From positions 64,001 through 128,000 of the IMG/VR virus record IMGVR_UViG_3300029922_000015: 64,000 bases of DNA; one strand, 5' to 3'. The translations under genes were made by a program, and so were the position numbers. The stretch comes from a virus. Positions 6,845 through 18,881 of the stretch are shown one piece after another. The first letter of the stretch is position 1. Each line of letters begins with the position of its first letter. Below the pieces are notes generated by a model. The model ran no database searches and was not told the DNA's origin. It worked only from the letters and a program-made list of their open reading frames with translations.

Positions 6845-6923
6845 TGGTGGGGATAGTCGGGATCAAACCGACGCCGAAGCTTTGAGAGAGCTACATCCTA
6901 ATCAACTATTAGACGATATCCCC
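6845..6923 (-). tRNA. tRNA-Glu(CTC)
   Basis: AGCT-ct-CTC-aa-AGCT arm, CCA. Confidence 0.9.
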
Positions 6924-8340: not shown

Positions 8341-9537
8341 TTATTGCCAAACGTGAACCCAATCAACATTGATTGGCTGATTTGGGCCACCCTGTAGTAA
8401 CAAGAACATTGACTGGATTTCTTGGGCGGTCAACTTGCTTCCCGTTCCGGTTGCAAAACGGGTTACACCACCCGCATGAACAACTAACTTATTATCATAA
8501 TAAAATTCAATATATCCCGTTCCGGTTCCAGTTGAAACCCACAAGCCGCCATAAGTATGCCAAGCCCCATCCGTAGGAGATGGAGATTCGCTCGATCCCT
8601 GCAAGCTCATCATTTGGTTTTCATTATCCGTATTAGCTATATCTGAGTCGTTATAACTATTAGCGGGATAATTCCAAGTATGGATTGTATTGATTGGATC
8701 AAACGTTGTTGAACTTAGGGGATAAGCTTCAAAAAAGTCTAATTCGCTTACCAAAGTAGCAGGGTGAGTTGCGGGATTCGTTGCGAAGAAGTTAGTTCCC
8801 CAAGCCCAAAATCCGGGCCAAGTTGCCGCGCTAGGATCATCAGGAGTTGAATTAAATTGAATACGAGCTTCAAAATAACCATGTTCCCAAGAACCGGCTG
8901 TCGTTCCGGGTGCGGAATTAGGTGGCATTGTTTCTACGTTGCCGCCTACTACGTTTAAAATACCATTCGCGCCCGCTAACGCGCCAGTTCCGGCTCCTGT
9001 ATTAACGGTTGCTTTGGTTGCTGGAGCCCAAAAAGAAGGATACCAATTAAATCCATTCGTAGCAGAACCTAATGTTACAGTGTCGGATGTAAAATCATCA
9101 TTAAAAATTAAATTGTGAAACCCCGCCGCGCTAGCTTGAGAAGGAACGGTAACTCCAGAAGGCGTTACGCCCGTTGGAGATGTTCCGCTAGTACCAGTGG
9201 GTTGAACGTTAACTCCTGATAGTTGAGCTTCGAGCGAAGTAATTTCGCTATTTAATCCAACAATTTGTGTCTTTAAACTAGACACTTGGGAATTAAGTCC
9301 GCTATTAACCGTTGTTAGAGAAGCATTAGAACTTTGTAGCGAGACGATTTGGCCGCTGGCTGTCACTAATTGACCGTTAAGGCTTGAAATTTGTGAGACG
9401 TAATTTCCTGTGGTATTAGCTAATCCACTATAATTAGAAATTACCGTTGAAAGTCCGCCTGTTTGATTGGCTAAAATAGCAATTTCGCCAATGGTTGAAA
9501 GTAATACACTTAAATCGTTTTGTTGTGCCGTAGTCAT
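8341..9537 (-). CDS. GH16/LamG-like glycoside hydrolase with N-terminal coiled coil and Thr/Ser/Pro linker
   Basis: LIFNDDF, GYFEARI, WPGFW, ELDFFE catalytic motif, WHTYG, VDWVHVWQ. Confidence 0.8.
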   Translation of the reverse strand: MTTAQQNDLSVLLSTIGEIAILANQTGGLSTVISNYSGLANTTGNYVSQISSLNGQLVTASGQIVSLQSSNASLTTVNSGLNSQVSSLKTQIVGLNSEITSLEAQLSGVNVQPTGTSGTSPTGVTPSGVTVPSQASAAGFHNLIFNDDFTSDTVTLGSATNGFNWYPSFWAPATKATVNTGAGTGALAGANGILNVVGGNVETMPPNSAPGTTAGSWEHGYFEARIQFNSTPDDPSAATWPGFWAWGTNFFATNPATHPATLVSELDFFEAYPLSSTTFDPINTIHTWNYPANSYNDSDIANTDNENQMMSLQGSSESPSPTDGAWHTYGGLWVSTGTGTGYIEFYYDNKLVVHAGGVTRFATGTGSKLTAQEIQSMFLLLQGGPNQPINVDWVHVWQ

Positions 9538-9581
9538 ACTGACCATTACACCCCTTAGCATCTTTGGGAATAACTATAAAT

Positions 9582-9669
9582 TGGTGCGGCTAGCGAGAAT
9601 CGGACTCGCAATCCCTCGCGGGCGACAGATTTTAAGTCTGTTGTGTATACCTAGTTCCACCATAACCGC
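9582..9669 (-). tRNA. tRNA-Leu(TAA)
   Basis: ACAGA-ct-TAA-aa-TCTGT arm, long variable arm, CCA. Confidence 0.93.
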
Positions 9670-11499: not shown

Positions 11500-11576
11500 T
11501 GGTGGAGCATATCGGTATTGCGCCGATCTGATTCGAAGGTGCAAGCTTCGCGACCACCCTTGCAGTCCCATGCCCC
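11500..11576 (-). tRNA. tRNA-Ala(TGC)
   Basis: G3.U70, CGAAG-ct-TGC-ac-CTTCG arm, CCA. Confidence 0.9.
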
Positions 11577-16277: not shown

Positions 16278-16332
16278 TCTCTAATTATACGGTTTCCCCG
16301 ATAAAAAGTCAACTCGAAGTGTAATAAGAGTT

Positions 16333-16469: not shown

Positions 16470-16544
16470 TGGTGGGCCATGACAATTACGATATGTCAAC
16501 TTACGGGTTAAGAATCCGTTACTCTTCCTTTGAGTTAATGGCCC
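16470..16544 (-). tRNA. tRNA-Lys(CTT)
   Basis: tt-CTT-aa loop, CCA. Confidence 0.88.
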
Positions 16545-16886: not shown

Positions 16887-17424
16887 GAAAATTATTCGCT
16901 ACTAATATACAGAATCTAACAAATTCCTCTTGAGATTGAGCCATCTTCATTTCATTAATCTGTTTATGTACCCACTGGACATTATCTAATGTGTAGCCTT
17001 TGGAAGAATCCTTTCTATCTAAAGAGGCCGTTCTATCAAAAGCGGTACGCTTGGTTCCAAAAATCAAAGGCAATCCTGTTAAAGCACATTTTCCATCTTG
17101 TTTTAAAAATAAATTCCAAACTTGTTCTATAGAAATATCTAATTCTAAATTTCTAGATACTGCACCTCGTTTTAATACTGTCCAAAATGATTGGGATATT
17201 TCTTCGTATCCTTTCCAATCTTTGTGATTCTTACCTGTACGCTTAACTATACATCCACAACTTTTGGTTCTACATAACGAATCACTTCTAATATTTTTTT
17301 CAGACTTGCAAAAATTACATTTGCAGTTCCAAATCAAATGGCCTCTTGGACTTTTTCCGACGCACTCTAAAACAGTAATCGATCCGTACTGTTTACCTAT
17401 CAAATGAGTTTTATAATCTATCAT
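16858..17424 (-). CDS. HNH-type homing endonuclease
   Basis: QDGKCALTG..TASLDRKDSSKGYTLDNVQWVHKQINEMK. Confidence 0.88.
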   Translation of the reverse strand: MIDYKTHLIGKQYGSITVLECVGKSPRGHLIWNCKCNFCKSEKNIRSDSLCRTKSCGCIVKRTGKNHKDWKGYEEISQSFWTVLKRGAVSRNLELDISIEQVWNLFLKQDGKCALTGLPLIFGTKRTAFDRTASLDRKDSSKGYTLDNVQWVHKQINEMKMAQSQEEFVRFCILVANNFQSGVLGANP

Positions 17425-17467
17425 AAAAAGGATTACACCTTATTGCCGACTTAGAGAGTTTTAAAAG

Positions 17468-17542
17468 TGGTGCAAGTAGGCAGAAGTCGAACTGCCGATT
17501 CAGCTTTGGCAAAGCCGTAGGATACCATTTCCTCATACTTGC
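17468..17542 (-). tRNA. tRNA-Gly(GCC)
   Basis: CGGCT-tt-GCC-aa-AGCTG arm, CCA. Confidence 0.92.
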
Positions 17543-17545
17543 GAA

Positions 17546-17900
17546 ATCATAAGGCTGCTAATCCAATTACGGACGCTTTACTTAGCTTCTCCATAGAAGC
17601 ACCTATAAATTGTGGGAAGCTGCTATAAGTAAACTTCTCTCGAAGTTCGCTGTTGTAACAGCCTCCCTAACTAACATAGGACTATCAGCGTCTCACGATT
17701 TCATTCGATTTTGACACTTTCCTATATAAAAGAACAAATTCTCATGGGGTAAGCCAAAATTTGTTACACTTTCTAGCGAGACTCGCTCGCCTTAACCCAA
17801 GTCCGCCTTACCGCGCTCGGATAGTGCTTTCTCGTTGCATCCCACTCTTTCGAAGTAGTCCGCGTGCGCCATTAAGCCGGGGCACGGAGGCAAATCTGTA
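17546..17900 (-). ncRNA. unidentified multi-domain structured RNA(s) at the head of the array
   Basis: ORF-free; stems GGGAGGCTGTTA/TAGCAGCTTCCC, TTTGCCT/AGGCGGA, CCGTGC/GCGCGG, ATAGGA/TCCTAT. Confidence 0.5.
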
Positions 17901-17905
17901 AAACT

Positions 17906-17938
17906 AAAAAACCCTTAAAAGCTTTTGCTTCTAAGGGT
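17906..17938 (-). terminator. intrinsic terminator of a putative attenuator
   Basis: ACCCTTAGAAGC-AAAA-GCTTTTAAGGGT followed by a T run. Confidence 0.85.
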
Positions 17939-17972
17939 GTAAATCACTAACTCTAAACACTTTACACCCTTA
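17932..17972 (-). promoter_or_regulatory. antiterminator hairpin, mutually exclusive with the terminator
   Basis: perfect 12-bp inverted repeat TAAGGGTGTAAA/TTTACACCCTTA sharing ACCCTTA with the terminator stem. Confidence 0.75.
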
Positions 17973-18092
17973 TAGTCTATCTCCGGTATTAAAGGCCCAT
18001 TGATAACTTGGGCGCAATGAGAAGGAGACAGAGGATTCCGTAATCGGGCAACCCTTTTTCGCTTCTGCTTTAATATTTTTCAGTGTCTTCAT
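17970..18092 (-). CDS. putative attenuator leader peptide (40 aa)
   Basis: MKTLKNIKAEAKKGCPITESSVSFSLRPSYQWAFNTGDRL*; stop codon is the first 3 nt of the antiterminator. Confidence 0.7.
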   Translation of the reverse strand: MKTLKNIKAEAKKGCPITESSVSFSLRPSYQWAFNTGDRL

Positions 18093-18123
18093 CTAAAATC
18101 TTTTCTCTTCTTACTATTCCACC

Positions 18124-18151
18124 ATTATTCACACTTTGGGAAATTTGTCAA
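18124..18151 (-). promoter_or_regulatory. sigma70-type promoter of the leader/tRNA operon
   Basis: TTGACA-N16-AATAAT with TG extension. Confidence 0.65.
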
Positions 18152-18237
18152 CTACTTTTTTCAACTTTCTTTTTCGTGAGCGGCGGAACGTCTGCTTAAA
18201 CCATCTACTATCATCTTATGCTTTTTTGATCGGTTTG

Positions 18238-18459
18238 TCAATTCTTTTTTCGATTTTCTTCAAGACGCTCGAAGGGAACGTTCTCTTCCAGAGCTATTCC
18301 ATCGCGTCCGACTCTCATAATATGACAACGCGGGCGAGAAACCTCTAAGTCAATTTCCAATGGCTTAATTTGTTTAATTAACGTTTTCTCAAAATATTCG
18401 AGTAAACGTTCCGTAATCCTAACTAATTGGATGAGTACAGCAATTTTTAATCGTCTCAT
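18238..18459 (-). CDS. hypothetical protein
   Basis: 73 aa ORF. Confidence 0.55.
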   Translation of the reverse strand: MRRLKIAVLIQLVRITERLLEYFEKTLIKQIKPLEIDLEVSRPRCHIMRVGRDGIALEENVPFERLEENRKKN

Positions 18460-18461
18460 GG

Positions 18462-18881
18462 TTATCCGTGGAATGCGTTGAATGTTGTATTGTAACTATC
18501 AAATAAATTCTTGATCTTCTCTGAACCGACAGGATTCATCGAGTGAACGTGAATCTCTGGAAGCTTCAAGCGATGGTGAAGACAATACTCGAAAAGGAAT
18601 TGGGCGCAGTGATAGCCAGTCTTTTCTTTGACCGAATCGTAAAACTTGTCTTCTCCTGTATAAAGAACGCGCCCACTAACATAAGCTTGATAATGCTCGT
18701 CGGCCAAATCGTGATCGAAGGAAACCTTTTCAGGAACTCCCTTATCCATGATCGTTTTACAAAAATCGTGGTAGTTCCGAACCACAAGAATATTCGTAAG
18801 GGGGAAGAACTTGTCTTCAAAGTCTCCCCACTTTACGTTCTTAGGTTCTCTAACGTCGTCAAGAAATAACTTATAAGACAT
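18462..18881 (-). CDS. cyclic-phosphate-processing receiver-like domain protein
   Basis: LFLDDVREP, SFDHDLAD, TGYHCA, HSMNPVG motifs. Confidence 0.8.
   Translation of the reverse strand: MSYKLFLDDVREPKNVKWGDFEDKFFPLTNILVVRNYHDFCKTIMDKGVPEKVSFDHDLADEHYQAYVSGRVLYTGEDKFYDSVKEKTGYHCAQFLFEYCLHHRLKLPEIHVHSMNPVGSEKIKNLFDSYNTTFNAFHG

Follow-up and report, generated by a model that had tools for sequence, protein, structure and literature searches.

A putative leader-peptide attenuator with an almost pan-amino-acid leader at the entry of a phage tRNA array

We report a compact unit, consisting of two tandem promoters, a 40-codon open reading frame (ORF) and two overlapping hairpins, which is located at the head of a large tRNA array in a window of 64,000 nucleotides (nt), i.e. 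positions 64,001 to 128,000 of the IMG/VR virus record IMGVR_UViG_3300029922_000015. The window is part of a 149.9-kb phage contig (~75% complete), and the leader unit and the array are both encoded on the minus strand, as are all window features given below by their start and end. Our data suggest this unit being a ribosome-mediated, i.e. leader-peptide-dependent, transcription attenuator at the entry of the tRNA array, a reading to which we assign a probability of roughly 0.55. More tentatively, and with somewhat less than an even chance of being right, we propose that the one leader acts as a global sensor of decoding capacity that switches on a replacement tRNA set together with transfer-messenger RNA (tmRNA). 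Phage tRNA arrays have so far been discussed as a means of countering tRNA cleavage by the host and mismatched codon usage, and we know of essentially no account of how their expression is controlled.

Architecture of the leader unit and the proposed switch

The unit starts with promoter P1 (18213-18241), which reads TTGACA-17-TAAGAT, scores 10/12 and overlaps the stop codon of an upstream ORF of 73 amino acids, followed by promoter P2 (18124-18151), which reads TTGACA-16-AATAAT and with 11/12 reaches the joint top score in 20 kb. The leader ORF (17970-18092) starts 59 nt after the -35 element of P2 and comprises 40 sense codons followed by TAA; it uses 33 distinct codons and 19 amino acids with His missing, and 26 of its 27 final codons are distinct. 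The leader stop codon (17972-17970) at the same time opens the 5' arm of hairpin H1 (17932-17972), the proposed antiterminator, in which the arms 17972-17961 and 17943-17932 form 12 perfect pairs separated by a 17-nt loop. The intrinsic terminator (17911-17938), a stem-loop of 12 pairs with a 4-nt AAAA loop, is followed by a run of six T residues forming the U-tract (17905-17910) and ranks first among the terminator-like sites in 20 kb, the array being preceded by the joint-strongest promoter and then the strongest terminator of this region. In the window phage, the terminator and the H1 3' arm share 7 nt, which are the first of the former and the last of the latter. The initial annotation had described a sigma70 promoter, the 40-codon ORF with its codon and amino acid counts, the perfect 12-base-pair (bp) inverted repeat overlapping the stop codon and the competing 12-bp terminator before the array, and we found all of these as described.

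The geometry fits a model in which the position of the ribosome would choose between H1 and the terminator. The two strong tandem early promoters would feed the array, i.e. a structured RNA, ~36 tRNAs and the tmRNA, with the attenuator setting the amount of transcription entering it. RNA polymerase would transcribe the 40-codon leader first. A ribosome translating smoothly and sitting on the stop codon would keep the 5' arm of H1 single-stranded, resulting in the formation of the full 12-bp terminator and in the end of transcription at the U-tract. With a ribosome delayed at an earlier codon, or missing, H1 would form first and take the U-tract-proximal base of the terminator stem, allowing the polymerase to read into the array. 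Depletion of host tRNAs by anticodon nucleases, host shut-off or starvation would make ribosomes lag on the leader and H1 form, and the feedback would close upon recovery of decoding. We infer that the leader is translated, that ribosome and polymerase are coupled, that the switch acts in this direction and that decoding speed is its signal.

Conservation and predicted switching in two related phages

Homologues of the protein encoded by the neighbouring cREC gene led to two syntenic contigs of uncultured phages, i.e. L006, a 171-kb Logan contig (cREC 59% identical), and L007, a 12.5-kb contig (cREC 55% identical), the glycosyltransferases of which are 68-71% identical to that of the window. 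Counterparts of P1 (L006 10833-10861; L007 10840-10868) and of P2 (L006 10920-10947; L007 10900-10928), scoring 10/12 each, precede leader counterparts with an ATG-Lys start comprising 36 codons in L006 (10972-11082) and 38 codons in L007 (10951-11067), and the leader ATG is at the same distance from P2 in the three phages. In both relatives the H1 counterpart (11 bp in L006, 12 bp in L007) begins on the third stop-codon base, and a terminator with a T-run (T9 in L006, T6 in L007) ends 61-64 nt after the stop, which is the distance found in the window, the sequence being different. In L006 a gene for an HNH endonuclease is inserted between the terminator and the structured RNA and tRNAs.

The N-terminal halves of the three leaders are nearly unalignable, still the frame is open, insertions and deletions all being multiples of three, and a YQWAF...TGD block is retained in the C-terminal part. 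Identities at the first, second and third codon position are 0.69/0.60/0.46 for the window vs L006 and 0.72/0.78/0.61 for L006 vs L007, with 3-5 synonymous differences per pair among the conserved leader residues. The third-position variation, the synonymous changes and the in-frame insertions and deletions together form the pattern of a translated sequence. This bears on the alternative that H1 acts independently of ribosomes, as a binding or processing site for an antiterminator protein, for RNase III or for 5' maturation, the open frame being incidental. H1 is a conserved helix, and an antiterminator hairpin lying over a terminator is also the geometry of protein-dependent antitermination, as in the BglG/SacY RAT sites. 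Against this alternative, the frame has remained open although the N-terminal halves have diverged completely and changed in length by whole codons, the distance of the ATG from P2 is constant, and the third codon position is the most variable one. Even with no protein bound, the H1 state is in addition at least as stable as the terminator (see below), and an Rfam scan of 17400-18400 at E <= 10 returned no family for the element, just the tRNA and a chance 15-bit NsiR1 match on the terminator. We therefore regard a ribosome-independent role as very unlikely.

The conserved peptide could also be the 36-40-residue product of an ordinary, strongly expressed early gene, which would have promoters of its own and a terminator made of two hairpins; where its stop codon lies would then have no bearing on regulation, and the array would be expressed through leakage at the terminator and from internal promoters. 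Its conservation at the amino acid level, chiefly in the YQWAF...TGD block and accompanied by synonymous changes, fits such a gene, small genes with own promoters are common in this early region, and promoter-like sites are present inside the array. We nevertheless consider a plain small gene unlikely, as it leaves unexplained why each of the three phages has its stop codon in the foot of H1, why H1 and the U-tract-proximal base of the terminator overlap in each of them despite changed sequences, and why the two states are energetically balanced. The peptide furthermore belongs to no known family, is 43-46% identical between the phages and thereby evolves faster than the neighbouring proteins (55-71%), and the leaders of a sister clade, described below, are matched to the tRNAs behind them.

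The arms of H1 differ among the three phages yet stay complementary. Between L006 and L007 a G-C pair is exchanged for A-U, a U-A pair is changed to U.G and a G-C pair is inserted as a pair, and in the window the outermost shared pair is exchanged and the helix is extended by three pairs into the stop codon; these changes were read from the individual folds because MAFFT and RNAalifold misaligned H1. The three terminators also have different sequences, with six compensatory pairs. The initial annotation had suggested looking for short codon-diverse ORFs with covarying hairpins upstream of arrays in related phages, and this is what L006 and L007 contain, compensatory changes included. It had also cautioned that the inverted repeat holds the motif GTGTAA. 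This motif is not enriched in the window and is missing from H1 of L007, arguing that H1 is not a dispersed repeat, and the caveat of a repeat family can be dropped. Inside the leader ORF, a 5-bp hairpin (GCCCA...TGGGC, 17995-18013), for which the alignment reveals equivalent arms in L006 and L007, could be a pause element.

Predicted folding energies place the two states close to each other. In the window they range from -14.3 to -14.9 kcal/mol for H1 and from -16.8 to -17.4 kcal/mol for the terminator. We compared H1, the full terminator and the truncated terminator, i.e. the remainder of the terminator with H1 intact, which are at -14.3, -16.8 and -3.2 kcal/mol in the window (overlap 7 nt), at -17.3, -8.5 and -6.0 kcal/mol in L006 (overlap 2 nt) and at -18.7, -12.1 and -4.8 kcal/mol in L007 (overlap 3 nt), the distance of the truncated terminator to the U-run being 7, 2 and 3 nt, respectively. 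The overlap is always at the U-tract-proximal base of the stem. H1 plus truncated terminator vs full terminator amounts to -17.5 vs -16.8 kcal/mol in the window, -23.3 vs -20.6 kcal/mol in L006 and -23.5 vs -21.5 kcal/mol in L007; with the H1 5' arm free, this puts the antiterminated state ahead by 0.7, 2.7 and 2.0 kcal/mol, respectively. We then folded the sequence that runs from the stop codon through the terminator, masking 6, 8, 10 or 13 nt counted from the first base of the stop. With nothing masked, the terminator pairs next to the U-tract have probabilities of 0.03-0.28 in the three phages, and masking of at least 6 nt results in the full terminator in all three (P >= 0.95), the outermost A-U terminator pair of the window phage reaching P = 0.54-0.77. 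Within this equilibrium model the predicted flip is independent of the exact ribosome footprint assumed. The comparison of folding energies proposed in the initial annotation thereby yields two balanced states, 0.7-2.7 kcal/mol apart, which flip with the masked position.

In the folding model it is occupation of the stop codon by a ribosome that flips the switch, and the conserved C-terminal residues rather than the codon diversity might keep the ribosome waiting there or close by, in the manner of arrest peptides of the TnaC, SecM or Erm-leader type, with a ligand or the state of the translation apparatus setting how long H1 stays open. The last 10-12 residues, which would be in the exit tunnel with the stop codon in the A site, are the most conserved ones, and the distance from a Gly-Asp pair to the stop is identical in the three phages. 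A search of the leader peptide against Pfam, NCBIfam and PDB chains, including arrest-peptide families (TnaC, SecM, MifM, Erm leaders), gave no match even at E <= 10; moreover, the neighbouring proteins are conserved to at least the same degree as the leader C-terminus, and the sister-clade leaders are matched in composition and not based on a motif. A nascent-peptide or release-dependent switch consequently appears distinctly improbable to us.

The locus gave no blastn match to cultured phages. IMG/VR was scanned with the cREC protein and a glycosyltransferase alignment as well as with the H1 pattern and the motifs of the leader DNA and of the downstream RNA, all without yielding a relative, and none was found by DNA and peptide searches for the unit in JGI metagenomes. 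Two metagenome matches to the leader motif lie inside long genes and were rejected as chance matches. Both the leader peptide as a single sequence and a three-sequence leader profile, the latter run against 5.8 billion clusters and 1.8 billion representatives, found only P0121, an L007-like copy. The other cREC contigs (L008, L011-L013) lack synteny or break off too soon.

Leader composition and the matched leaders of a sister clade

At least 33 distinct codons are found in 0.5% of the stop-free 40-codon stretches of this genome, and at least 33 distinct codons plus at least 19 amino acids in 0.09%, which makes the codon diversity pointed out in the initial annotation an outlier against length-matched sequence. 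Restricted to long ORFs, 0.3% of the stretches reach at least 33 distinct codons; nucleotide shuffles of the leader ORF do so in 3.6% of cases, and in 0.9% with at least 19 amino acids in addition. About 2 of 408 mechanical ORFs of 40-60 codons in the genome reach 33 distinct codons, so that composition alone is not significant genome-wide and would not single the leader out. What singles it out is its position and its conservation. The L006 leader contains all 20 amino acids in 36 codons and the L007 leader all 20 in 38 codons, for which the null from the window's genome is 0.09% and 0.16%, respectively, and their counts of distinct codons (30/36 and 31/38) are both in the 1% tail.

The shared C-terminal block holds 17 amino acid types in 22 residues (P = 0.003), or 18 in 24 (P = 0.0009), and given this block, a random N-terminal part attains the observed total with P = 0.14, 0.11 and 0.30 in the three phages. 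The diversity resides mostly in the shared block, and the three leaders are thus not independent of each other. In relation to the array, the leader of the window engages 27 of 34 phage anticodon species vs 20.8 +/- 2.1 in the null (P = 0.002), a match to which a near-complete array leaves little discriminating power and which lacks any His codon on the side of the leader. With 19-20 amino acids and 27/34 anticodon species sampled, shortage of almost any charged tRNA would raise read-through.

Leaders related in composition to the tRNAs behind them are present in L014, L015 and L016, phages with a cREC protein ~50% identical to that of the window, whose loci had been fetched for other reasons and whose promoters are of the Bacteroidota type (TTTG ... 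TAnnTTTG). A 24-codon ORF (L016 2487-2561; L015 3214-3288; L014 4823-4897) is followed by a terminator and by Pro, His and Gln tRNAs; it contains the run QPQPQQHPQ, and Pro, His and Gln make up 9 of its 23 residues vs a background of 8.7% (P = 7e-5). A second leader, an ORF of 30 codons (L016 6719-6811; L015 7033-7125), is followed by a terminator and by tRNAs for Asp (three), Glu, Val (two), Leu (three) and Ala, and these five amino acids account for 20 of its 29 residues vs a background of 25.5% (P = 1e-6). Swapping the amino acid sets between both leaders abolishes the enrichment (3/23 and 0/29).

Towards their ends, both sister-clade leader ORFs contain a sequence that repeats the terminator 3' arm. 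The last codons of the second leader of L015 and L016 are complementary to the 5' arm of the terminator, a pairing we did not rely on, the terminator being far more stable.

The window shares with L014-L016 the order of promoter, mini-ORF and terminator before tRNA genes. Its peptide and hairpins are not homologous to theirs, and whereas the sister-clade leaders favour the few amino acids that a small block of tRNAs serves, the window leader is pan-amino-acid and stands before a near-complete array. Judged by sequence, these loci show the coupling of a mini-ORF and terminator to the tRNAs behind as a recurrent design in phages with such arrays, and for an array covering all amino acids a leader resembling that of the window would be expected. 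Further tRNA-matched leaders were found neither behind the internal promoters of the window's array nor among the small ORFs of the L006 array.

Several observations weigh against an attenuator. The corresponding proposal of the initial annotation gains from the conservation, the compensatory changes, the balanced energies, the diversity and the matched leaders of the sister clade, while the overlap between H1 and terminator, 7 nt in the window, is just 2-3 nt in the relatives. In the fold of the whole naked leader of the window, the H1 5' arm can pair upstream and the terminator forms at equilibrium, so that antitermination in the window phage would rest on the order or kinetics of folding; this upstream pairing is not seen for the whole naked leaders of L006 and L007. 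The amino acid diversity is real yet represents about one evolutionary event and was noticed post hoc, homologous leader sequences number only three, two of them close to each other, and the window leader has no His codon in spite of a tRNA-His in the array. Codon adaptation in this leader is ordinary (codon adaptation index at the 22nd-29th percentile), and on this ground an enrichment of rare codons was dropped as a candidate feature. The leader is preceded by no Shine-Dalgarno motif, or a weak one at most, which is uninformative because the genome hardly uses such motifs (13 of 120 long ORFs). Finally, as the initial annotation had already noted, promoter-like sites are present inside the array (at 16312, 13740, 2887 and others), which could express most tRNAs independently; the leader can hence gate entry into the array only.

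Relation to known systems, the tRNA array and its neighbours

Attenuation by leader peptides is textbook knowledge for amino acid operons (trpL, hisL, pheL, leuL and the multivalent ilvGMEDA and thr leaders). The phage unit resembles these in having a promoter-proximal short ORF, a terminator before the regulated genes and an alternative, excluding hairpin, in the choice of the fold by ribosome position, which we propose here, and, within our model, in regulatory codons being related to the regulated product. In contrast to amino acid operons, where biosynthetic enzymes are controlled, the regulated products would be phage tRNAs, tmRNA and a structured RNA, and instead of a run of a single codon the window-type leaders have no run and sample 19-20 amino acids. 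The phage unit consists of two competing hairpins only, without the conserved region-1 'anti-antiterminator', suggesting that an untranslated leader would read through and not super-attenuate. Sequence homology to the leaders of amino acid operons is absent.

The leaders of bmrCD, vmlR, lmo0919 and of the erm type are ribosome-stalling attenuators of resistance genes that sense general translation stress. As proposed for the phage unit, slowed translation of the leader at non-specific positions favours the antiterminator and activates relief genes; the signal in those systems is drug-bound ribosomes and the targets are host protein genes, whereas the phage unit would respond to how much charged tRNA is available and would control a replacement tRNA set encoded by a virus. 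T-box riboswitches likewise sense tRNA status and choose between terminator and antiterminator, doing so directly by specifier loop and T-box, neither of which is present here, where Rfam gives no match and sensing would be indirect through the ribosome.

Full-text literature searches found no published description of leader-peptide control of phage tRNA arrays. New here is the proposed leader-type control of tRNA genes, in a virus, and with an all-amino-acid leader. If our model holds true, the phage would measure decoding speed directly and supply tRNAs on demand, and a textbook mechanism would be extended from amino acid supply to tRNA supply and from one or few amino acids to twenty. Together with the leaders of the sister clade, which suggest a principle not confined to one lineage, the unit would belong to a family of virus-encoded attenuators regulating tRNA genes by translation speed. 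A promoter, a mini-ORF, a stop codon in the foot of a hairpin and an overlapping terminator provide a signature to search for more cases.

The RNA array extends from 17542 to 1440 and comprises 33 tRNAs called by ARAGORN, two more called by Rfam, i.e. tRNA-Lys(CUU) at 16473-16544 and tRNA-Glu(CUC) at 6848-6923 with anticodons read from the folds, and the tmRNA. The first is tRNA-Gly(GCC) (17468-17542), found by both ARAGORN and Rfam, which is likewise the first tRNA behind the leader in L006, and no promoter-like site scoring at least 10/12 lies between it and the leader terminator. Default ARAGORN and Rfam combined give 35 tRNAs covering 19 amino acids. The description of the array as complete in the initial annotation accordingly holds for these 19 amino acids, and for Ala it depends on a candidate atypical tRNA-Ala(UGC) (11500-11576), the only source of Ala coverage in the array. 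This candidate has a cloverleaf, G3.U70 and an encoded CCA, its T-loop is unusual, and it was called at a relaxed ARAGORN threshold only, having been missed by default ARAGORN and having no Rfam support; if it is real, the array spans all 20 amino acids. Many tRNAs of the array are 83-92 nt long, which is unusually long for their class, and genes for HNH homing endonucleases are scattered within the array. Just before tRNA-Pro, the segment 16152-16312 combines a strong promoter (TTGACT-17-TATAAT, 11/12) with a hydrophobic 41-codon ORF behind it, the last codons of which contain an 8-bp hairpin (16190-16171) and the peptide of which is unmatched to the following tRNAs.

The 368-nt spacer behind the terminator folds, as a whole, with z = -3.5. 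Directly 3' of the terminator lie ~120 GC-rich nt (17770-17890), which are not alignable to L006 and L007 in this part. The first conserved product behind the terminator is a structured RNA of ~120 nt with two hairpin domains (17600-17745), identified by alignment and RNAalifold, which aligns with L006 11735-11870 and L007 11250-11387; RNAalifold predicts 40 pairs, seven of them with compensatory change, and no Rfam family matched this RNA.

Directly upstream of the leader unit, the glycosyltransferase gene and the cREC_REC gene are located. The latter (18462-18881) encodes a cyclic-phosphate-processing receiver domain and adjoins the tRNA array here and in every related contig, and in other phages (L011, L012) it adjoins a gene for a Zeta_toxin/AAA_33-type kinase. 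This genomic context suggests RNA or tRNA repair. As context only, this neighbouring gene of RNA-repair type, like the tmRNA of the array, is in line with a conflict in which the integrity of tRNAs is at stake.

Within the Leu block of L016, ARAGORN calls a tRNA with a four-base anticodon (ccaa; 9528-9610), which could be a frameshift-suppressor-like tRNA or a miscall. The phage contig of the window encodes a DnaE-type polymerase, for which no cultured relative exceeds 30% identity. The combination of a genome poor in Shine-Dalgarno motifs with canonical TTGACA/TATAAT early promoters is a possible clue to its host.

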